A stretch of DNA of 64,000 nucleotides from an uncultured Anaerolineae bacterium (GCA_903846015.1 CAIMZS010000460.1:40-64039); one strand, 5' to 3'; shown: positions 4,334-54,580, counted from the first letter of the stretch. Program-made: numbers and translations. Notes: generated from the letters alone by a model not told the origin.

Positions 4334-5104
4334 TTACTTGATATCGTACGCGATCGTCACAGTGACCGTGATCTCCATTTGCCCGGGGTTGATCGGCACA
4401 GCGATATCTGCACTGGCTGCCCCGCCGCCCATGCCCTTGCCCTGGAATATGGGGGATGGTGATGCATCGTAATATTGGATACTCTGGATGTCGCCCAGGG
4501 TAACGCCCGCGGCATCAGCCAGTTCAACTGCCTGTGTTTTAGCAGTCTTGACCGCATCAGCGCGCGCCTGGCTGAGAGCCTTGCTTTTATCAGCCACATC
4601 AAATTGGATGCTGTTAATATTATTTGCGCCCGCCTTTACAGCGGCGTCCAGCAGGTCACCCAACTTATCGAGCTTGCGCACAGTCAAATACACGGTGTTG
4701 TCGACAGCATAGTTGGAACTGGTTGGCTTGCCATCTGGCCCATACTGGTTATTTTGCCAGATACTAAAGTTGGTAGTTTGGATATCATTAGCATCCACCC
4801 CTGCAGCCTTCAGCGCAGTGATCAACTTCTGTGTATTCGCGTTGTTCTCAGCCACCGATTCGGAAGCAGTCGCCATTTCGGTATGCACACCAACATAAAT
4901 ATACGCGATGTCAGGCTTCAACGACACCTTTCCGGCACCGCTAATGGTAAGCGTACGAGGTGTGGAAGAAGCGCTCTGGCCGGCCTGGGCAGCCGATGAT
5001 GTGACCGGAACTACTGCAGCAACCGGCAGCATTGCCGGACCACAAGCACTCAACAGAACCGCCAATAGGACAACAATTGAAATTAATAATGTTTTGGTTT
5101 TCAT
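4334..5104 (-). CDS. SIMPL-domain (DUF541) secreted/lipoprotein
   Basis: MKTKTLLISIVVLLAVLLSACG is a lipobox-like signal. SIMPL-like segments follow (KPDIAYIYVGV, QTTNFSIW, INPGQMEITVTV). The start at 5104 is preceded by an AAGGAGAG Shine-Dalgarno sequence. Confidence 0.8.
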   Translation of the reverse strand: MKTKTLLISIVVLLAVLLSACGPAMLPVAAVVPVTSSAAQAGQSASSTPRTLTISGAGKVSLKPDIAYIYVGVHTEMATASESVAENNANTQKLITALKAAGVDANDIQTTNFSIWQNNQYGPDGKPTSSNYAVDNTVYLTVRKLDKLGDLLDAAVKAGANNINSIQFDVADKSKALSQARADAVKTAKTQAVELADAAGVTLGDIQSIQYYDASPSPIFQGKGMGGGAASADIAVPINPGQMEITVTVTIAYDIK

Positions 5105-5270
5105 CTTTCTCTCCTTGTGAATTTGAATTACCATATTCCAGACGCACAAGCTTGTAAAAAGTTCCCTGCGCTTGTATTTTCATCAAACATCCTGTAAAAT
5201 CTAAACAAATGTTCTAATACATAACCAAATAGCGTAGAAACAGTGCACATCCAACATTAAAGGAAAAGCA

Positions 5271-6476
5271 ATGACTCTTGACTTTCAACAGGTGTATCAA
5301 AAGATCAAGGAAATTGGCGCCACCGTTCAACAACGCAAAAAAACACTGGAAGAACGGCGCGCTCATGCCCGCTTTCTGCTGAATTTGCACGCCGATAACC
5401 TGGCTGGGTTGCGCTATAAGATTGAAACCGTCAAAGAGGCTGATCCCAATATCCGCTGCGCCCTGCCGCTTCAGGAACGCCTGGACCACCACAGCCCTGG
5501 GCCTGATCTGCCGTCCGCCGCAACCCTGATCGCCGCAGACGGTTCGCAGATCAATCCAGACCGGCATGCCGCCATCCAATACGGATTGGTAAATGTAGGC
5601 GCAATCATCCTGCGGCTGAACTCGAACGAAGCACCCATCATTCGCACCGACAGCGAACTGCTTTACGATGATGAACTATACACTCCATCCGGAAACCCAC
5701 TCTCGGAGGGCCTGGTTGCCCTACAGCGCGATCTGAAAGAACGGGCAAAACTTCTTGTTCTGGCAGATGAATTCGGCGTTGACGGCAGCCCGGTGATCAC
5801 ATTTACCGATGGCCCCATCGAACTGTGGGGAATGAGGGATGGCGAGGATGCCCTCGCCTTTGAGCAGAGCCTGAAAAAATACCTGTCTGTGCTTTCCCAG
5901 CTTCAACAAAAAAATATCACCACGGCTGGTTACGTCGACAAGCCATCATCCGATCCAGTCATCCGCTTGCTTGAACTGACCGAAGCAACCGATGATGACC
6001 TGAAAAAACTGCGCGAATTTCATCCCTTACGTGGTGTCACAGACCGCTGGCTTTTTGGCGATGGGAACGTCGCGCTGATCAAAAGCGGTGAACGCTCGGC
6101 CGTATTCGCTTTTCAATCGAAATCCGAAAAATATTACAACGGCATTTTGGCCCTGCACTTTTTTTATCTTAACGTTGGCACAGACAGGCATCCTACCATC
6201 GTACGGGTCGAGATCCCTAAATGGGTTGTTGATGACCCCGAAAAGCTGAACATGCTCCACGCCGTGCTTATCAGCCAATGCCGCATGCTGGGCGCCAGAC
6301 CCTACCCCTACCTGCTGCATCGCGCCCACGAAACAGCCGTGGTCACACATGAAGAAAAGCAGCAAGTCGACCAGATGCTGATGAGTGAACTTTATCGCTC
6401 CGGTGGAGAAATTGACGAAGGCTCATACAAGCAATCCGCCAAGGATTTGGCCGGAAGAACGGGCTACCGGCGCTAA
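5271..6476 (+). CDS. nurA: NurA-domain nuclease (HerA partner)
   Basis: 401 aa with NurA-like acidic motifs: LIAADGSQINPDRH (catalytic-Asp context), ITFTDGPIELWG and YVDKPSSDPVIRLLEL. It lies two genes upstream of a HerA-like ATPase. Confidence 0.7.
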   Translation: MTLDFQQVYQKIKEIGATVQQRKKTLEERRAHARFLLNLHADNLAGLRYKIETVKEADPNIRCALPLQERLDHHSPGPDLPSAATLIAADGSQINPDRHAAIQYGLVNVGAIILRLNSNEAPIIRTDSELLYDDELYTPSGNPLSEGLVALQRDLKERAKLLVLADEFGVDGSPVITFTDGPIELWGMRDGEDALAFEQSLKKYLSVLSQLQQKNITTAGYVDKPSSDPVIRLLELTEATDDDLKKLREFHPLRGVTDRWLFGDGNVALIKSGERSAVFAFQSKSEKYYNGILALHFFYLNVGTDRHPTIVRVEIPKWVVDDPEKLNMLHAVLISQCRMLGARPYPYLLHRAHETAVVTHEEKQQVDQMLMSELYRSGGEIDEGSYKQSAKDLAGRTGYRR

Positions 6477-6571
6477 TATGATAAAAACGCTCTTATCCGC
6501 GTTTTCCTCGGCGCATTGGTTTTTCTCAGCATAATATCAAGACACTTAGAACAGCGAAAATCGGAGCCAGC

Positions 6572-7168
6572 ATGCCATCTTATGAAATTGGACGTTTACT
6601 ACGCGCCGGAACAACCGGTTTTATCGCCGGGTGCTCGGTCTCACAATTTGAAGCCCCGGCCTTCGGGTCACTTGTCCGCGCTCCATTGGGGGACGACTAC
6701 CAGGTTTATGGGCTGATCTACGATATCCATATCGATGATGATGGGCTGGTCCGCCAGCTCGTGACCGCCGAGCATGTCAGCCCGGAGGTCATGAAAGACA
6801 ACCGTGAGCGCCGCATCGTACCGGTGGAAATGTCTGTGCTCTCGGCTGGCTACAAACAGGGTGACCGCATCCAGCACCTGCTGCCGCCTCGCCCGCCGCT
6901 CAGTCTGGACGTGATCTTTTTGTGTGATGATAAAGAACTGGTCCAGTTCACCGATGTGGGTCGCTTCGGCTATTTTCGACATATCCTGCGCGCCAAGGAT
7001 GCCCCCATCGGCGAGATGCTGGCGGCGCACATTCAACAAGCCGGCGCAGCACATGGGCAGCTCAGTGACAGGTGGAAGGAAGCCGCCACCCAGGAATTGA
7101 TCACCTTGCTCCGTGATGATTACCCGACCTTAATGAGCGTGCTCGGCGCGCTGGGCGAAGTCTTTTAG
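6572..7168 (+). CDS. Hypothetical protein, candidate stand-alone HAS-barrel domain plus helical tail
   Basis: A 198-aa ORF sits between the NurA and HerA genes. GSLVRAPLGDDYQVYGLIYDIHI resembles the HerA N-terminal segment GGFVVIDSGNYRFYGLVTDLKL encoded next door. A later segment, VEMSVLSAGYKQGDRIQHLLPPRPPLSLDV, also fits a barrel. Confidence 0.5.
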   Translation: MPSYEIGRLLRAGTTGFIAGCSVSQFEAPAFGSLVRAPLGDDYQVYGLIYDIHIDDDGLVRQLVTAEHVSPEVMKDNRERRIVPVEMSVLSAGYKQGDRIQHLLPPRPPLSLDVIFLCDDKELVQFTDVGRFGYFRHILRAKDAPIGEMLAAHIQQAGAAHGQLSDRWKEAATQELITLLRDDYPTLMSVLGALGEVF

Positions 7169-7221
7169 GTTTTCCTTCCACAAACTGCACAAGCACATCT
7201 CAACCAAACAGAGAGGTCGCC

Positions 7222-8946
7222 ATGTTTAATCAAAACTCGAAAATTGTAGTTCAACAACCCACCATCGGCTACATGGTCGGCGGAGGCCTGAAAGAATCCT
7301 TCTCCGCCCGCCTGACCGTTGACCCGCTTGACATCCAGGAAGGCGGCTTTGTTGTCATAGACAGCGGCAACTACCGTTTCTACGGGCTGGTTACTGACCT
7401 GAAGCTGGGCGCCACCGACCCGCGCTTCGCGGATGAGCAGTCCGAGAAACGCCTGCCGCCCTCCCTCGCCAAGGCATTGCACGGCCAAACCCTCTTCACC
7501 AACCTGGAGATCCTGCCGGCGCTCATGCTGGAACGCGGCCCCGATCCCGCTTCAAAGGAATACAAACTATGGCGGGCAGAACACCCCGAAGATCCGCGCC
7601 CCCTGCCGGTCAAGACCGTGCCCATGCATCACGCGCCTGTCAGCCTGGCGGATGCAGCCGATATTGCCACCATTTTCGGCGACCCCGATAAAGATGGTAA
7701 CTTTATCATCGGCTACACCCGGGAACAGGGGCACCCGGTCTGCATCAACCTGGAGAAGTTCGTTCAGCGCTCTTCCGGTGTCTTCGGCGCCACCGGCACC
7801 GGTAAATCCTTCCTCACCCGCCTGATATTGGCCGGGTTGATGCACTATAACAAGGCTTCGGTACTTGTGTTAGATATGCACAACGAGTACGGCTTTGACG
7901 ATGTTGCCTCCGACACCAAAATGCCCGTCATTGGCTTAAAAACCAAGTTCAGGGGTAAGGTCAGGGTGGTCGGTCTTGGCGCAGGGGCCAAAATCCGCAA
8001 TAGTCAGACACCCGACTTTAACCTGGAAATCGCCATGAAGGATATCTCCGCGGCGGATGTAGAAATGCTGGCGCGCGAATTGAATCTAAAGGATACCTCC
8101 CCCACCACACTCAACGCACTATACACATCCTTTAAAAGCGACTGGTTTGCACACTTCAAATCAATGAACCGCGAAGAAGTCGAAGTGGAAGATGACAAGG
8201 GTCGGATCAAGAAAGTGCCGCACCCCGATAGCGTTGCCTGCTGGGCCGAGGCAAACGGCGTTAATGTGATGGCTGCCGAAGCCCTGCACGACAAGCTGCG
8301 CCGTTTATTCGGCAAACCCTATATCGTTGAAAAACCCGTTTCGGATGGCATCGGTGAAATCATCAAGGCACTCGAAGCCGGGCAGCACGTGGTTTTATCG
8401 TTCGGCGACCATGAAGCTGACCTGGACTACCTGCTGGTGTCCAACCTGCTGACACGCCACATTCGCGACGCATGGGAAAAAAGAACCAATGAATTCCGCG
8501 CGCACGGCTCGCGCGAACCACGCCCGCTGGTCATCGTGGTAGAAGAGGCTCACAAACTACTGAACCGCGAAATGGCCGCGCAGACCACCTTCGCCACCAT
8601 CGCGCGCGAACTGCGCAAATACTACGTCACCCTTCTGATTGTCGATCAGCGCCCATCCCAAATCTATGATGAAGTCATGTCGCAGCTCGGCACACGCATC
8701 AGCGGCTGGCTGGGCGATGACGATGACATCCAGGCCGTCCTATCGGGGCTGTCTGGCCGTGAAGCCATTAAGGGTATGTTGGCACGCCTGCAGCCCAAGG
8801 AAGAAGTCCTGCTGCTCGGCTGGGGCGTGCCCATGCCGCTGCCGGTGCGGTCACGGCGTTATGACGATAACTTCTGGCGCGAGCTGCTCGGCGCAAAAAA
8901 CGGCAGTACCGAAGCCGGTTTATTGAAAGAGTTGGGTTTTGATTAA
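7222..8946 (+). CDS. herA: HerA-like FtsK/HerA-superfamily ATPase
   Basis: 574 aa with an N-terminal HAS-barrel-like region. Walker A is GVFGATGTGKSF (nt ~7786-7809) and Walker B is PLVIVVEEAHKLL (nt ~8521-8560). The distal motif LLIVDQRPSQI is typical of HerA. Confidence 0.85.
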   Translation: MFNQNSKIVVQQPTIGYMVGGGLKESFSARLTVDPLDIQEGGFVVIDSGNYRFYGLVTDLKLGATDPRFADEQSEKRLPPSLAKALHGQTLFTNLEILPALMLERGPDPASKEYKLWRAEHPEDPRPLPVKTVPMHHAPVSLADAADIATIFGDPDKDGNFIIGYTREQGHPVCINLEKFVQRSSGVFGATGTGKSFLTRLILAGLMHYNKASVLVLDMHNEYGFDDVASDTKMPVIGLKTKFRGKVRVVGLGAGAKIRNSQTPDFNLEIAMKDISAADVEMLARELNLKDTSPTTLNALYTSFKSDWFAHFKSMNREEVEVEDDKGRIKKVPHPDSVACWAEANGVNVMAAEALHDKLRRLFGKPYIVEKPVSDGIGEIIKALEAGQHVVLSFGDHEADLDYLLVSNLLTRHIRDAWEKRTNEFRAHGSREPRPLVIVVEEAHKLLNREMAAQTTFATIARELRKYYVTLLIVDQRPSQIYDEVMSQLGTRISGWLGDDDDIQAVLSGLSGREAIKGMLARLQPKEEVLLLGWGVPMPLPVRSRRYDDNFWRELLGAKNGSTEAGLLKELGFD

Positions 8947-8984
8947 CACCAGGCAGATTTCCCTTTGACACGCGAGGAGCACAA

Positions 8985-9491
8985 ATGACACACCCTTTAA
9001 TCGATCAACTTCGTTTTGCCCGTCTTGAATGGCTGCGCGGCCTCGAAAATATCCCGGAAGATGATGCCCAGCGCCACTTTGGTCCAATGAACTGCATCAG
9101 TTGGACAATAGGCCATCTGGCCTGGCACGAACAACGTTACTGGCTGGAGCGTGCCCAGGGACAGATTCTTATCCCGACGCTGAATGAACTCTTCGCTTAT
9201 CGCGCGCCAATGAGCACACCATCACTGGATGAAATGCTCTCGGCCTGGCGCCAGATAACCCAGGCAACCGACCCATATCTTGATACGCTCACAACCGAAT
9301 TATTGCAGGGTGAACTGCTGCACAAAGGGCGCTCAATCGGGCAAACCATCGGCTCAGGGCTTCACCGCATTAATTATCATTATTGGTACCACATCGGCGA
9401 GATACAGGCGATTCGGCAAATGCTTGGGCATACCAACCTGGCCGAATATGTCGGCGATATTGAGAAACTGGCACCCTATCGCCCCGAGTGA
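8985..9491 (+). CDS. DinB-superfamily protein
   Basis: 168 aa with four-helix-bundle-type His motifs (TIGHLAWHEQRYW, YHYWYHIGEIQ). Confidence 0.7.
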   Translation: MTHPLIDQLRFARLEWLRGLENIPEDDAQRHFGPMNCISWTIGHLAWHEQRYWLERAQGQILIPTLNELFAYRAPMSTPSLDEMLSAWRQITQATDPYLDTLTTELLQGELLHKGRSIGQTIGSGLHRINYHYWYHIGEIQAIRQMLGHTNLAEYVGDIEKLAPYRPE

Positions 9492-9531
9492 CAAAGACCG
9501 GTAATCCGATATAAATGGATGAGGAAACAAG

Positions 9532-10899
9532 ATGGTTGACCAACATGCAAGAAACCTGGAAATAGATTCCTTACAAATTTTGCGCGAAGCGCTTAATAAA
9601 CTGGATAATGGATTTTCGGCACTCAAACCAGCCGCAATCCCATCAGATCATCAGGCTCTGGAAAACGTTCTTTTTGAAGTAGCCGAACGATTGAAAGACA
9701 ATTATCCCTACTTTCACCCGCTCTACGCCGGGCAAATGCTCAAACCGCCCCACCCTGTCGCCCGCCTGGCCTATATGCTGGCGATGTGGATCAATCCAAA
9801 CAATCACGCCCTGGATGGCGGCAAGGCCAGTTCGCAAATGGAAAAAGAAGCCGTCGCCGAAATCGCAAAAATGTTCGGCTGGGATACCTTTCTCGGCCAC
9901 CTGACCAGCGGCGGCACAATGGCCAACCTGGAAGCCTTGTGGGTGGCCGGACAGTTCAACCCGTCCGGGAAAATTGTCGCTTCAAAACAAGCCCATTACA
10001 CCCACAGCCGCATCAGCGCCGTGTTAAAACTTGATTTCGCCTCAATCCCAAATGACCGGCGCGGCCGGATGGATATCGATGCGCTGAAAAAACTCCTTGA
10101 CCTGGGTAATATCGGCACGGTGGTCGCAACAGTGGGAACCACCGCCACCGGTTCGATCGATCCGCTCCCCGACCTGCTCAACCTGCGCGAAAAATACGGC
10201 TTTCGCATCCACATCGATTCAGCCTACGGCGGCTACTTCAAACTGGCAGATAACCTCTCGCCTGAAACCGCCGCTGTCTATGAACGCATCAATGAAGCCG
10301 ATTCGATCGTGGTCGACCCGCACAAACACGGCCTCCAACCGTACGGCTGTGGCTGCGTTCTTTTCCGTGACCTATCCGTGGGCCGTTTCTACAAACACGA
10401 TTCACCTTACACCTATTTCAGTTCAACCGAGCTGCATCTCGGTGAAATCAGCCTGGAATGCTCCCGCGCCGGCGCCACTGCCGTAGGGCTGTGGGCCACC
10501 CAAAAGCTGCTCCCCCTTGAAAAAGGCGGCGAATTCGCCCTGGGATTGCAAAGCGGGCGTGAGGCTGCCCTGGCTCTGTGGGAAAAGCTGCGTGCGGATA
10601 AACGCTTCATCACCGCCTTCCCTCCCGAATTAGATATCATCTTCTGGGCCCCGCACGCCAAAAGTGTCAGCGCCTCCTCAGAAATGGCGCGTAAACTCTT
10701 CGCAGCCGCCGAAGAAAAACAGCTTTACCTGGCACTGGCCAATTTACCGGTTGAATTCTTCGATCTTCCCGCCGGCATGCAGCCAGATAGCGACACCATC
10801 ACCTGCCTGCGTTCCGTCCTGATGAAGCCGGAGCACCGCGCCTGGGTGGATGAAATTTGGAACATCATCGACCAAGTCGCTGGCGATACCCCCGCCTGA
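9532..10899 (+). CDS. Group II pyridoxal-phosphate-dependent decarboxylase
   Basis: HLTSGGTMANLEALWVA, HIDSAYGG and the PLP-lysine context VVDPHKHGLQPYGCG. Confidence 0.85.
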   Translation: MVDQHARNLEIDSLQILREALNKLDNGFSALKPAAIPSDHQALENVLFEVAERLKDNYPYFHPLYAGQMLKPPHPVARLAYMLAMWINPNNHALDGGKASSQMEKEAVAEIAKMFGWDTFLGHLTSGGTMANLEALWVAGQFNPSGKIVASKQAHYTHSRISAVLKLDFASIPNDRRGRMDIDALKKLLDLGNIGTVVATVGTTATGSIDPLPDLLNLREKYGFRIHIDSAYGGYFKLADNLSPETAAVYERINEADSIVVDPHKHGLQPYGCGCVLFRDLSVGRFYKHDSPYTYFSSTELHLGEISLECSRAGATAVGLWATQKLLPLEKGGEFALGLQSGREAALALWEKLRADKRFITAFPPELDIIFWAPHAKSVSASSEMARKLFAAAEEKQLYLALANLPVEFFDLPAGMQPDSDTITCLRSVLMKPEHRAWVDEIWNIIDQVAGDTPA

Positions 10900-12319: not shown

Positions 12320-14053
12320 TTGATTATGAATAACCACGAAGTAGCCGACACTTTTACCCTGATCGCCAACCTGCTTGAGATTAAAGGCGAGGTCATCTAC
12401 GTTACCCTGGCCTACCGCAAAACCGCAGAAACCCTGGTCTCGCTCGGACGCGATATCAACGAATATTGGAAGGAAGGCAAGCTGCGCGAGATCCCATCCG
12501 TTGGCAAAGCCATTGCCGAAAAAATAGACGAATTGCTGCGCACCGGTCAGCTTCAATTTCTGGAAAATCTCAAGCAGGAAATTCCCGCCGGGCTGGCCAA
12601 ATGGCTGCAAGTCCCCGGCCTGGGACCCAAAAAAGTGGCCCTGATTTGGAAGCAGTTGGGCATCACCACGCTGGCTGAACTGACAAGCGCCGCTCAACAA
12701 GGCAGGCTGCGCTCCCTGCCCGGCATGGGCGAAAAATCAGAAGCCCAGATCCTGGTCGGGCTGGAATCGCTCTCGCGCCGTTCGGGACGAATTCCGCTCG
12801 GGCGCGCCTTTCCCCTGGCCCAGGAGATCATCGCCGCCCTCACAAAAATCCCAGGCGTGACGGGCGCCTCACCCGCCGGTTCGCTCCGCCGCATGCGCCC
12901 CACCGTTGGCGATTTGGACATCCTGGTCTCCGCCAGGCAGTCCGCCCCGGTCATGGAAGCCTTCACCACCCTGCCCGGCGTTGTCCGCGTGCTTGGCAAA
13001 GGCGAAACCAAGGCCAGCATAGAATTTGGCGATGGGCTGCGCGCCCAATTGTGGGTGCACCCACCCGAAAAATTCGGCACGGCCCTGCAATACGCCACCG
13101 GTTCAAAAGACCACAACGTACAGCTCCGCCAGCTTGCCCTGGAAAAAGGTCTGTCGCTCTCCGAACATTCCCTGGCACGCACCGACGGCACCGACGAAAT
13201 CCTGTGTGCCACCGAAGAGCAAGTCTACGCCGCGCTCGGCCTGCCATACATCCCCCCGGAAATGCGTGAGGATCGCGGCGAAGTACAGGCCGCCAAAACA
13301 GGATCGCTCCCCAGGTTGATCGAAGTGGGTGATATTCGCGCCGATCTCCAGACCCACTCCAACTGGTCGGATGGCAAATTGACCATGCTGGAAATGGCCC
13401 GCGCCGCCGCCCGGCGCGGCATCAAAGTGATCGCCTTCACCGACCACTCGGTCAGCCTGGGTGTCACTGGAGGTCTCAGCATGGAACGCCATGCCGAACA
13501 ACAACTCGAGATGGCTGCCGCCCAACGCGAACTGGGCGACAGCATACGCATTCTGCATGCCTCCGAAGTCGAGATCAAGGCCGACGGCTCGCTGGATTAC
13601 CCCGATGAATTCCTGGCGAGCCTGGACCTGGTGCTGGCTTCCCTGCACACCTCCCTGCGCCAGCCGCGCGAAAAGGTCACCGAACGCCTGCTCAAAGCCA
13701 TCCACAACCCGCACGTTGATATCATCGGTCACCCCACCGGCCGCCTGATTCCTGACCGTGAAGGCGCCGACCTGGACATGGAAGCCGTGTTGACCGCCGC
13801 AGCGCAATCCGGCGTGGCACTCGAGATCAATGCCAGCCCCTACCGCCTGGACCTGGAAGACATTTATGCCCGCCGCGCCAAAGACATGGGCATTCCCATC
13901 AGCATCAATACCGATGCTCACTCCGAGGCCGATATGGATATGCTGCCCTTCGGCGTAGCCATTGCCCGCCGCGCCTGGCTGACGGCAGAAGATGTCATCA
14001 ACACCTGGCCTGAACATCGTTTACTGACCTGGCTGGCAAATCGAGGTCAATAA
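12320..14053 (+). CDS. polX: DNA polymerase/3'-5' exonuclease PolX (Pol beta-like domain plus PHP domain)
   Basis: HhH motifs (IPSVGKAIAEKI, LPGMGEKS), the nucleotidyltransferase motif GSLRRMRPTVGDLDILV, and a PHP domain (HSNWSDG, FTDHS, INTDAHS). The true start may be the ATG at 12326. Confidence 0.9.
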   Translation: MIMNNHEVADTFTLIANLLEIKGEVIYVTLAYRKTAETLVSLGRDINEYWKEGKLREIPSVGKAIAEKIDELLRTGQLQFLENLKQEIPAGLAKWLQVPGLGPKKVALIWKQLGITTLAELTSAAQQGRLRSLPGMGEKSEAQILVGLESLSRRSGRIPLGRAFPLAQEIIAALTKIPGVTGASPAGSLRRMRPTVGDLDILVSARQSAPVMEAFTTLPGVVRVLGKGETKASIEFGDGLRAQLWVHPPEKFGTALQYATGSKDHNVQLRQLALEKGLSLSEHSLARTDGTDEILCATEEQVYAALGLPYIPPEMREDRGEVQAAKTGSLPRLIEVGDIRADLQTHSNWSDGKLTMLEMARAAARRGIKVIAFTDHSVSLGVTGGLSMERHAEQQLEMAAAQRELGDSIRILHASEVEIKADGSLDYPDEFLASLDLVLASLHTSLRQPREKVTERLLKAIHNPHVDIIGHPTGRLIPDREGADLDMEAVLTAAAQSGVALEINASPYRLDLEDIYARRAKDMGIPISINTDAHSEADMDMLPFGVAIARRAWLTAEDVINTWPEHRLLTWLANRGQ

Positions 14054-52015: not shown

Positions 52016-54580
52016 ATGGATAGCAAAACCCTGCACGTACTCGAATATCCCAAAATATTGGAACGCCTTGCCTCCAATTGTGACTTCTCCGCATCGGCAG
52101 CGCTGGCGCGTTCTCTCGAACCCACCACATCCTATGATACCGCCCTGCTGCGCCTGCAAGAGACAACCGAAGCACGCCGGTTGATCACTGCCCAGGATGT
52201 CAGCATTGGTGGGGCTCGTGATGTGCGCGAAAAAGTGGAACTGGCCCGGCGCGGCGGCGTGCTCGAAACAGTTGATCTGTTGGACATAAAATACACCCTC
52301 ATTTCGTGCCGTGAGCTTAAGCGCACACTGCTTGGAAAAGGAATGGACTCAGAAATTCAGCCAGAAGGCGCGACCCCATCCCGGCAGCCGAGTATCCCGA
52401 GGCAAAACCAGCTGCGGAAACAAGCCCGACAGCTCCGCGATGGCTCTGTGCCGCACCCGAATCATCCCTACCCGCGCATGGCCGAACTGGCCCTGGCGCT
52501 GCCCGTACCGCCCGGCGTCGTGGATGCCATTTCCCGCACCATCTCAGATAAAGGCGAAGTACTCGACTCGGCTTCACCCCGGTTAGGCGCCATCCGCGCC
52601 GAGATTCGCGTTGCACGCGAACGCCTGATGAGCCGCCTGCAGCGCTACCTGGGCGACAGCAAGACATCCCCAATGCTGCAAGACACCATCATCACCCAAC
52701 GAGATGGGCGCTACGTCATCCCACTGCGCGCCGAGTTCAAAGGCCAGATCAAGTCAATCGTTCACGACCAATCATCCAGCGGCGCAACACTCTTCATTGA
52801 ACCAATCGCTGTAGTTGAATTAAACAATAAAATGCGTGAAGTGGAATTAGCCGAACGTGACGAGATTCGCCGGGTTTTGGCTGAAGTTTCGGCCCAGGTT
52901 GGCCTGCAGGCCGAAGCTATCGTCACCGGTGTTGATGCCCTGGCAGCCATCGACCTGGCCTTTGCCAAAGCCAAATTTGCCGAAGACATCCATGCATCCG
53001 AACCAATCCTGCACAAACAATCCGCATTGATACGCCTCTTCAAAGCCCGCCACCCGCTGATCGACCCAACCATGGTGGTCCCCAATGACATCGATCTGGC
53101 ACCGGGTACACGCGCCGTTGTCATCACCGGGCCAAACACCGGCGGCAAGACCGTTTCGCTTAAGACCGTCGGTCTGCTGGTGGTCATGGCCCAAAGCGGT
53201 TTGCACATCCCCGCCCAGAGTGGCTCCGAATTATCCATGTTCCATGATATCTTCGCCGATATTGGTGATGAGCAATCCATTGAGCAATCACTCAGCACGT
53301 TCAGCGGTCATATCACCAACATCATCCGCATCCTGAAGAAGATCGACGCCCGTTCACTGGTCATTCTCGATGAACTGGGCGCCGGCACCGACCCACAAGA
53401 GGGCGCAGCCCTGGCGCGCGCCATCCTCAGCCACCTGCTTGAACGCGGGTTGACTACCTTTGTAGCCACACATTACCCCGAACTTAAAGCTTTTGCCCAC
53501 AGCGCCGAAGGCGTGGTCAACGCCTCGCTCGAATTTGACGTTGCCACCCTGCGGCCCACCTACCGCCTGACCATCGGCCTGCCGGGACGTTCCAATGCCC
53601 TGGCCATCGCCGCCAGACTGGGCCTGCCCGAAGCCATCATTGCCGATGCTCGTAACGAGGTCAACCCCGATGAATTGCGCGCCGACCGCCTGCTGGATGA
53701 TATCCGTAAAGAACGCAACCGCTCCAGCCGTGAACGTGAAAAAGCCGAAAAAGCCCGCCAGCGCATTGATGATCTCAGCAGCGAATTAGCCGCACATCTC
53801 GAAAAAATCGAAGACGAGCGCCTCGAAGTGATCGCCAGAGCCAAGGCTGAGGCCGAGCTCGAAGTAGAAGTGCTCAAACGCAATATTGGACGGCTCAAAA
53901 CCGAGTTGAAAAAGCTGCGCCAACCGCTCGAAGCCATTGAGAGACTGGAGATCAAAGCGGAAGCAATCGAGGAAAAAGCCCTGGCGCCCGTTGAGCGCCA
54001 GATTCCCGCAAAGGCAGCCAACCCAAAACCTCTCCCAAAACCCATCAGCGGACCGCTCAAGCTGGGCGAGAAAGTCATCGTTCGCAGCCTTGGCAGCGAA
54101 GGCATTGTCACTGCTCTGGGCGAAGGTGATGCCGAAGTACAGGTTGGCAGTTTGCGCATCCGTGCCCGCTTCGGCGAGATCCAGCGTAAATCTGACGCCG
54201 ATGAAAGCTGGCCTGGCATAGGCATCGGAAAAACAGATGAACCGGGCTTGACCGGACGCACCCGCCGCATTAAACAAATGGCAGAAAATATGCCATCGTC
54301 CACATCTTCATCCTATATCGGGATCGCCACACCCAGTATGGAACTTGACTTACGCGGGCAGCGCGCCGAAGACGCCCTGTTGATGCTGGATAATTACCTG
54401 GACAAGGCCTACCTGGCAGGCATGCCCTTTGTGCGTATCATCCATGGCAAAGGGACAGGTAAGCTGCGCCAGGAAGTGCGCGCAGTACTCAAAGATCATG
54501 CCCAGGTATCATCCTTCGAAGAAGGTCTTCCCGGCGAAGGTGGTGACGGCGTCACCGTTGCCAAAATTGTTAAAGATTAA
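52016..54580 (+). CDS. mutS2: Endonuclease MutS2 (MutS domain V ATPase plus C-terminal Smr domain)
   Basis: Walker A GPNTGGKTVSLKT, DELGAGTDP, a long coiled coil, and the Smr domain LDLRGQRAEDAL...IIHGKGTGKLR. Confidence 0.95.
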   Translation: MDSKTLHVLEYPKILERLASNCDFSASAALARSLEPTTSYDTALLRLQETTEARRLITAQDVSIGGARDVREKVELARRGGVLETVDLLDIKYTLISCRELKRTLLGKGMDSEIQPEGATPSRQPSIPRQNQLRKQARQLRDGSVPHPNHPYPRMAELALALPVPPGVVDAISRTISDKGEVLDSASPRLGAIRAEIRVARERLMSRLQRYLGDSKTSPMLQDTIITQRDGRYVIPLRAEFKGQIKSIVHDQSSSGATLFIEPIAVVELNNKMREVELAERDEIRRVLAEVSAQVGLQAEAIVTGVDALAAIDLAFAKAKFAEDIHASEPILHKQSALIRLFKARHPLIDPTMVVPNDIDLAPGTRAVVITGPNTGGKTVSLKTVGLLVVMAQSGLHIPAQSGSELSMFHDIFADIGDEQSIEQSLSTFSGHITNIIRILKKIDARSLVILDELGAGTDPQEGAALARAILSHLLERGLTTFVATHYPELKAFAHSAEGVVNASLEFDVATLRPTYRLTIGLPGRSNALAIAARLGLPEAIIADARNEVNPDELRADRLLDDIRKERNRSSREREKAEKARQRIDDLSSELAAHLEKIEDERLEVIARAKAEAELEVEVLKRNIGRLKTELKKLRQPLEAIERLEIKAEAIEEKALAPVERQIPAKAANPKPLPKPISGPLKLGEKVIVRSLGSEGIVTALGEGDAEVQVGSLRIRARFGEIQRKSDADESWPGIGIGKTDEPGLTGRTRRIKQMAENMPSSTSSSYIGIATPSMELDLRGQRAEDALLMLDNYLDKAYLAGMPFVRIIHGKGTGKLRQEVRAVLKDHAQVSSFEEGLPGEGGDGVTVAKIVKD

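Follow-up and report, generated by a model that had tools for sequence, protein, structure and literature searches.

A stand-alone HAS-barrel protein encoded between nurA and herA: a predicted third component of a NurA-HerA module in Anaerolineae

We analyzed a stretch of 64,000 nucleotides (nt) from an uncultured Anaerolineae bacterium (GCA_903846015.1 CAIMZS010000460.1:40-64039; hereafter the window), in which three + strand open reading frames (ORFs) at 5271-6476, 6572-7168, and 7222-8946 encode a NurA-family nuclease, a middle protein that we call X, and a HerA-type ATPase. The order nurA, X, herA is conserved among relatives, and a predicted structure indicates that the N-terminal part of X is a free-standing copy of the HAS-barrel with which HerA itself begins. 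We consider it probable that the three genes constitute a chromosomal, vertically inherited DNA-end-processing module of the Chloroflexota, in which X would be a third, obligatory-looking subunit beside NurA and HerA.

The NurA-HerA pair is a model helicase-nuclease for DNA-end resection, and HerA rings have lately been recognized as scaffolds for several anti-phage effectors. HerA and the subunits of F1/V1-type ATPases have the HAS-barrel (PF09378) as their N-terminal collar, and to our knowledge this collar has served as a docking platform in every case studied. A first-pass annotation of the window had described three genes on one strand with gaps of 95 and 53 nt, encoding a NurA-like nuclease with DGSQ and DGP motifs, an uncharacterized middle protein, and a HerA-like ATPase with Walker A and B motifs and an N-terminal HAS-barrel, with no Mre11 or Rad50 genes present. 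The ORF list gave the same gaps, with ATG as the start codon of every gene and products of 401 (NurA), 198 (X), and 574 (HerA) amino acids (aa), and profile searches supported both enzymes. The Pfam NurA profile matched the first protein with E = 4e-17 (63 bits relative to a cut-off of 21) over residues 85-358, corresponding to model positions 2-254 of 254; the DGSQ motif spans residues 90-93 (nt 5538-5549) and the DGP motif residues 180-182 (nt 5808-5816). When residue conservation was followed in an 18-row paired NurA-X alignment, D90, E157, D258, and H330 were invariant and position 180 was D or E in relatives down to ~32-35% NurA identity; in a second set of five sequences D90, E157, and H330 were again invariant and position 180 was always D. 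As these acidic and histidine residues are conserved, the nuclease is probably active. Compared with PDB sequences, NurA gave no match at E <= 0.1. The third protein matched the DUF87/HerA central domain (4.5e-27) and HerA_C (4.8e-5) and carries Walker A (GATGTGKS) at residues 189-196 (nt 7786-7809) and Walker B (VVEEAH) at residues 439-444 (nt 8536-8553); the match of its own HAS-barrel, at residues 15-77 (nt 7264-7452), had E = 2e-5 and at 25.0 bits fell marginally below the cut-off of 25.2. No adjacent mre11 or rad50 was found in a scan of the larger window ORFs, the sole ORF of at least 800 aa encoding MutS2.

Protein X was assigned to no Pfam, NCBIfam, or PADLOC family, and its homologues' names and the literature searches likewise left it uncharacterized, as the first-pass annotation had it. 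The absence of a catalytic motif, also stated there, was borne out as well, and X has neither a P-loop nor an ATPase domain; what did not stand was the picture of a featureless protein, as both a HAS-barrel and a helical domain could be recognized in it. The N-terminal half of X resembled the N-terminus of HerA when the sequences were read, and this resemblance was then tested in three ways. An AlphaFold2 (AF2) model, built on an alignment of 24 diverse family members, had a predicted local distance difference test score (pLDDT) of 93.4 and a predicted template modeling score of 0.87; it consisted of a beta-rich domain at residues 4-117, into which two helices (58-65 and 71-80) are inserted and which bears the conserved motif LPPxPPxxL, followed by helices at residues 120-197. 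In a Foldseek search of the PDB with this model the top 50 matches were all HerA chains, with probability 1.00 and 122-163 aligned columns, and the alignments lay on the N-terminal beta-barrel; the best match was 9c1m_M (E = 5.9e-6), and the chains matched came from DUF4297-HerA, SIR2-HerA, TdpA, Sulfolobus solfataricus HerA (4d2i), and the Thermococcus kodakarensis HerA-NurA complex (9x1m). The Pfam HAS-barrel profile was matched by 11 of the 24 family members, in each case below threshold (best E = 3.4e-4), and no other Pfam family was matched by more than one of them. When the X family profile was compared by hhalign with the N-termini of the cognate HerA proteins, 52 columns aligned with P = 1.3e-4. 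The window X did not reach the gathering score of PF09378 (12.1 bits, E = 0.22, relative to 25.2), and the HAS-barrel assignment therefore rests on the predicted fold together with repeated weak sequence signals. From the model we concluded that the N-terminal part of X is in all likelihood a stand-alone copy of the HerA HAS-barrel. The modeled barrel shares with PF09378 its strand order, the helical insert, and a conserved Pro-rich closing segment; whereas PF09378 has been described from the N-terminus of P-loop ATPase chains, X is a separate polypeptide with a helical domain attached. X may have originated when the 5' end of herA was duplicated in tandem, which would fit both its position directly 5' of herA and the alignment of its barrel with the N-terminus of the cognate HerA.

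The C-terminal domain of X, about 77 residues long, was predicted to be all helical when residues 122-198 were modeled alone (AF2 pLDDT 92.6) and is conserved throughout the family; a Foldseek search of the PDB with it gave nothing significant (best E 6.7). A profile search of X against PDB sequences returned only noise (best E = 0.54). X had no match at E <= 0.001 in a fold search of viral predicted structures, which gave no support to the idea that X is a phage-derived HAS decoy.

To follow the triad among relatives we used two sets of loci, an X-centered set of 80 loci from species-representative genomes, found through X, and a NurA-centered set of 80 metagenome loci, found through distant NurA sequences. 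In the X-centered set nurA lay upstream of X in 74 of the 80 loci and herA downstream in 71, with order and strand constant; the misses were mostly contig ends. In the NurA-centered set X lay downstream of nurA in 72 of 80 loci, or 72 of about 75 that could be evaluated, as five of the eight misses left no room for X. The order NurA-X-HerA was kept even at 30-36% X identity in four loci with flanks unlike those of the window and ordinary housekeeping genes in their place; among them is the complete Thermoflexus hugenholtzii JAD2 genome, where the triad occupies positions 2760845-2764550 of CP076326.1, and in two of the four loci stop and start codons overlap. Absence of the middle gene from relatives that keep the pair, which the first-pass annotation had named as an outcome against a three-component system, was thus clearly refuted. 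The gap between nurA and X in relatives was short, with a median of 82 nt and several cases of overlapping stop and start codons; that between X and herA, 53 nt in the window, had a median of 567 nt and reached 3.3 kb.

The X family is large. Homologues at E <= 1e-3 fell into 6465 clusters (90% identity), and the closest 120 were full length and 77-93% identical, every named one being labeled 'hypothetical protein'; an exhaustive search of 1.84 billion cluster representatives yielded 438 X clusters at 50% identity, nearly all of 190-220 aa. X is therefore a real gene. All members with an organism name belong to the Chloroflexota, among them metagenome-assembled genomes (MAGs) of Anaerolineales, Pelolinea, and the cultured T. 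hugenholtzii JAD2. A 4.3-kb contig labeled as a Syntrophothermus MAG (Firmicutes; L048, JBLNAU010000562.1) carries SIMPL-NurA-X with an X 76% identical to that of the window and is most likely a mis-binned Anaerolineales contig. Among 30 genomes (29 related loci and the window) the mean Kimura distance was 0.247 for X, 0.235 for the neighboring 3-hydroxyisobutyrate dehydrogenase, 0.293 for HerA, and 0.640 for NurA; X thus evolves as slowly as the neighboring housekeeping enzyme and is under strong purifying selection. No copy of X was found by tblastn among 50,697 phage and 72,556 plasmid records, and HerA gave one weak match to a Sphingomonas plasmid.

Whether the triad sits in a syntenic core or in variable islands had been posed in the first-pass annotation, and the upstream flank together with the absence of X from the phage and plasmid records answered it in favor of a core, with the 3' side variable. 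The upstream dehydrogenase and SIMPL genes were syntenic in about 50 of the 80 X-centered loci (Anaerolineales). The gene 3' of herA differed in almost every relative (L001-L088) and was often HNH-like, PIN-like, a DDE or IS200-like transposase, a methyltransferase, or AAA/OLD-like, labels assigned by reading the sequences except for an HNH_5 domain in locus L036 that came from a profile search; insertions thus recur on the 3' side of the module. Insertions also occurred between X and herA. A same-strand gene of about 135 aa with a PDDEXK_3 domain (PF13366, E = 2.3e-39) occupied this spacer in 29 of 76 related loci, for example L002:6628-7044, never lay between nurA and X, and was absent from the 64-kb window; other insertions there were sometimes a GT87 membrane protein or methyltransferases. 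The PDDEXK_3 genes had a mean distance of 0.51, and their distances correlated poorly with those of X (r = 0.25). On these grounds, their absence from the window, their fast evolution, and the poor correlation, we provisionally rejected PDDEXK_3 as a fourth subunit; these genes look like recurrent site-specific invaders. The X-herA spacer and the DNA 3' of herA are two insertion hot spots, and the module behaves as a core element sited at the edge of a variable segment. In one of the distant triad loci (L084:1-800) the upstream DNA has minus-strand matches to Phage_P22_Y8K6 and UPF0150 (HicB-like), so that some triads may adjoin prophage remnants.

How X might act is suggested by the NurA-HerA complexes studied so far. 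S. solfataricus HerA without its HAS domain loses NurA binding, the partner surface being a flat hydrophobic face of the NurA dimer (PMC3326311). In the 6:2 complex of D. radiodurans the NurA dimer is docked on the HAS ring, each NurA protomer contacting four HAS domains of the HerA hexamer (PMC9960219). As the HAS-barrel is the NurA-docking domain in these complexes, X is most simply taken as a participant in that interface, and we propose that its barrel would join the docking of NurA to HerA. Most likely X would form an extra coaxial collar or an adaptor presenting NurA to the HerA pore, with contacts and a stoichiometry that we infer; alternatively, it could be a mimic of the HAS-barrel that keeps hold of the NurA dimer until a DNA end has been loaded with HerA. 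Duplex DNA would be driven into NurA by HerA, in which both Walker motifs are intact, and NurA, with its catalytic acidic residues intact, would resect or degrade DNA ends, its presumed role in vivo. We favor the collar or adaptor because X evolves at the slow rate of HerA and not at that of NurA, which fits a symmetric ring with several interfaces, and because X-herA pairs persist without an adjacent nurA. A housekeeping role in end processing is favored by the vertical inheritance and synteny of the module, by strong purifying selection, and by the findings that the phage and plasmid records contain no X and that PADLOC matches neither NurA nor X. More tentatively, and with somewhat less than even confidence, we suggest that in X a HerA/FtsK-type motor may have its first known HAS-barrel subunit acting in trans. 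X would be an ATPase-less paralogue that sits on HerA as a second collar, or on NurA as a mimic of the HAS domain, and it would gate the timing and manner of the coupling of nuclease and translocase through its helical domain.

Several observations weigh against a three-subunit end-processing module. HerA keeps its own HAS-barrel, and an additional one is not obviously needed; X, an acidic protein (isoelectric point 5.2) without a catalytic motif, gives of itself no hint of a function. Inserted genes, amounting to 0.4-3.3 kb, part X from herA in most relatives, and strict co-transcription of all three genes is therefore not general. When rate covariation was examined as partial correlations of distance matrices, with two neighbor genes controlled, all three pairs gave values of about 0.2-0.3 and no partner of X was singled out. 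HerA is about equally distant from archaeal repair HerA and from anti-phage HerA: the best NCBIfam match was HerA_Thermprot (archaeal repair, 4.1e-21), and HerA_antiphage was matched at 1.1e-19, with scores far below the curated cut-offs in both cases (75 bits relative to 800 for the archaeal equivalog, 70 relative to 800 for the defense family), and the PDB sequence matches included SIR2-associated HerA 8wiv (2e-18), S. solfataricus 4d2i (4.2e-14), and T. kodakarensis 9x1l (2.5e-11). Sequence similarity therefore leaves the choice between repair and defense undecided. Finally, there are loci in which the triad is incomplete. In three X-centered loci that could be evaluated (L003, L016, and L036) X and herA are present and nurA is not directly upstream, and in a fourth, L082, a DUF1294 gene precedes X, although only about 430 nt of upstream sequence are available there; in the NurA-centered set L144 and L090 are genuine exceptions with nurA and no adjacent X.

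These incomplete loci differ in kind. At L036:2254-5413, X and a HerA 57% identical to that of the window are followed by a gene with a weak HNH_5 match (E = 3e-4); a GNAT acetyltransferase gene lies upstream and no nurA occurs within 2.2 kb in that direction. L036 could be a nuclease swap. At L144:6200-11119 there is no X or herA within 4.9 kb after nurA, the next genes lying on the minus strand, and at L090:2836-5189 there is none within 2.3 kb after nurA; L144 and L090 are rare broken-up or rearranged modules. At the other extreme, a metagenomic fragment of 315 aa (P0225) joins the C-terminus of NurA to the N-terminus of X in one reading frame, no stop codon intervening; it is a natural NurA-X fusion or else the product of an error in sequencing. 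We rejected such fusions as Rosetta-stone evidence, as most of them (P0152, P0154, P0265) were frameshift assembly artifacts with out-of-frame low-complexity sequence and P0225 is only a fragment.

The mechanistic variant in which X is a HAS-barrel mimic or inhibitor deserves separate attention, unlikely as we hold it to be. Here X would occupy the HerA-binding face of the NurA dimer and stay outside the working machine, restraining ATP-independent nicking or chaperoning assembly until displaced once HerA engages a DNA end. X would be suited to such a task in having HerA's NurA-binding domain and no motor, and its gene is linked tightly to nurA, with the short and often overlapping junction described above, into which PDDEXK_3 never inserts; the P0225 fragment, with the reservation just made about its sequence, would also agree with an intimate NurA-X relation. 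Free D. radiodurans NurA nicks DNA without HerA or ATP (PMC9960219), and an activity of this kind would need control. If the fast-evolving NurA were the sole partner of X, however, we would not expect X to evolve 2.6 times more slowly than NurA and at approximately the rate of HerA, nor X-herA pairs to exist without an adjacent nurA, as they do (L082 among them being only weakly evaluable). We therefore retain the collar or adaptor as the preferred form of the three-subunit module.

An anti-phage function, which the first-pass annotation had offered as an alternative to end resection, we regard as quite unlikely. The module would then be an immune system of the HerA-plus-effector type, like Sir2-HerA (Nezha) or DUF4297-HerA, in which NurA would be the effector and X a sensor or regulator, and invading linear DNA would be destroyed. 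The affinities of HerA allow for this, as many PADLOC HerA models matched it (best PDLC04105, 6.6e-32), HerA_antiphage scored close to the repair family, and the best PDB sequence match was the SIR2-associated protein; the authors of PMC3326311 have themselves speculated that HerA-NurA could degrade foreign DNA, and the HNH-like, PIN-like, transposase, methyltransferase, and PDDEXK_3 genes in the two insertion hot spots are neighbors that a defense system might have. On the other hand, the matches of HerA to defense models fall mainly in the generic C-terminal ATPase region and remain far below the cut-off, neither NurA nor X matched any PADLOC model, and X is as conserved as a core enzyme and lacks phage and plasmid copies, HerA having the single weak plasmid match. 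The module lies at the same place beside the same upstream housekeeping genes across the Anaerolineales and is retained down to about 30% X identity in different housekeeping contexts. The known systems Sir2-HerA/Nezha, DUF4297-HerA, and TdpAB share with the triad a HerA-type ATPase, the HAS-side face of which docks a variable effector in those systems, and the barrel of X superposes on their HerA chains (9c1m, 8zit, 8wld, 8sub, 8wfd). They differ in that the effector in the window is NurA and not Sir2, DUF4297, or TdpB, no Sir2 or DUF4297 domain having been found; in that they consist of two genes, none with a stand-alone HAS-barrel subunit, whereas the triad includes X; and in that their distribution is patchy, whereas that of the triad is vertical and syntenic, though variable DNA abuts the 3' side of herA.

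That X is a hitch-hiker, left over from a partial herA duplication or serving an unrelated function and merely co-located, is highly improbable: X has no catalytic motif or annotated family and gene order alone is no proof of function, but the full-length X is strongly constrained by purifying selection across many species, it still stands between nurA and herA when identity has fallen to 30%, it is present in nearly all of the NurA-centered loci that could be evaluated, and its second domain is predicted to be well folded and is conserved throughout the family.

Among described systems the closest in gene content is the DrNurA-DrHerA pair of Deinococcus radiodurans (and HepA/NurA of Thermus), in which a NurA nuclease and a HerA ATPase with a HAS-barrel are likewise encoded together on one strand, and with which the window also shares the lack of an adjacent mre11 or rad50. 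In contrast to this two-gene arrangement, the window has a conserved third gene in between, so that its composition is not that of a two-component system, and modules of the window type are confined to the Chloroflexota as far as named sequences show. The accessible part of the Deinococcus study, in which nurA and herA were deleted and complemented jointly as one operon, mentions no third gene (PMC9960219). If the Deinococcus locus indeed consists of two genes, X would be a lineage-specific addition and not a universal bacterial feature. No HerA with a Deinococcus name occurred among the nine PDB sequences that matched the window HerA at E <= 1e-3, which, at the level of sequence comparison, suggests that the latter belongs to a separate lineage. 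With the archaeal herA-mre11-rad50-nurA operons of Sulfolobus, Pyrococcus, and Thermococcus the window shares both enzyme families, the best NCBIfam match (HerA_Thermprot), and, as modeled, a fold of X that matches 4d2i and 9x1m; in the archaeal system NurA docking depends on the HAS domain (PMC3326311). It differs in lacking Mre11 and Rad50 among the larger ORFs, in gene order, and in the additional stand-alone HAS-barrel protein.

The NurA-HerA pair is thus known and has been studied as two proteins, and the module has both enzymes in common with it and presumably also the working principle of motor and nuclease; what is added here is a conserved third protein that, from its predicted fold, is made from the docking domain of the motor and a helical domain. 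Searches of the literature on free-standing HAS-barrels and on NurA or HerA in the Chloroflexota returned nothing relevant, the original description of the HAS-barrel lying outside their coverage. With a conserved HAS-barrel encoded by a gene of its own at this place, such machines may be assembled or regulated in a manner of which we found no description. On the more tentative reading of X as a trans-acting subunit, NurA-HerA machines could be controlled by their docking domain in free form, and the three-subunit type would be that of an entire bacterial class. Members of the Anaerolineae are abundant in sediments and wastewater, and a structural annotation is gained for thousands of their 'hypothetical proteins'. 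The triad is directly testable, as it consists of three small soluble proteins and the cultured thermophile T. hugenholtzii is among its carriers.

The features of the module and its immediate surroundings in the window are as follows.

4334-5149, minus strand: SIMPL gene, the neighbor 5' of nurA.
5150-5270, + strand: divergent intergenic region between SIMPL and nurA; presumed promoter region, with ribosome-binding site aaAGGAaaagcaATG.
5271-6476, + strand: nurA, encoding the 401-aa NurA-family (RNase H-like) nuclease; Pfam NurA 4e-17.
6477-6571, + strand: nurA-X spacer of 95 nt, with ribosome-binding site cGGAGccagcATG and a weak hairpin plus T-run at 6499-6514.
6572-6931, + strand: N-terminal part of gene X, residues 1-120, a predicted HAS-barrel with helical insert (AF2 model, Foldseek, Pfam, hhalign).
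6932-7168, + strand: C-terminal part of gene X, residues 121-198 plus stop, a conserved, predicted helical domain; its end reads ...LLRDDYPTLMSVLGAL...
7169-7221, + strand: X-herA spacer of 53 nt, with ribosome-binding site aGAGAGGtcgccATG; insertion site in relatives.
7222-8946, + strand: herA, encoding the 574-aa HerA/FtsK-superfamily ATPase; DUF87 4.5e-27.

Shine-Dalgarno-like purine runs lie upstream of all three start codons. A promoter scan of the + strand of 5150-5270 gave nothing exceeding chance, and in a promoter and terminator scan of 5000-9600 the counts equaled the chance expectation, the terminator-like site at 6499-6514 being among them; the promoter of the module is presumed, by inference only, to lie in 5150-5270. 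In a Pfam scan the flanking genes of the window encoded SIMPL, a dehydrogenase, YitT, DinB_2, a PLP decarboxylase, CAP/LysM, and PolX. Three other genes related to DNA repair lie in the window: a PolX-type polymerase with a PHP domain at 12320-14053 and MutS2 (MutS_V plus Smr) at 52016-54580, neither of them adjacent to the module, and a DinB_2-superfamily protein encoded directly after herA, at 8985-9491.

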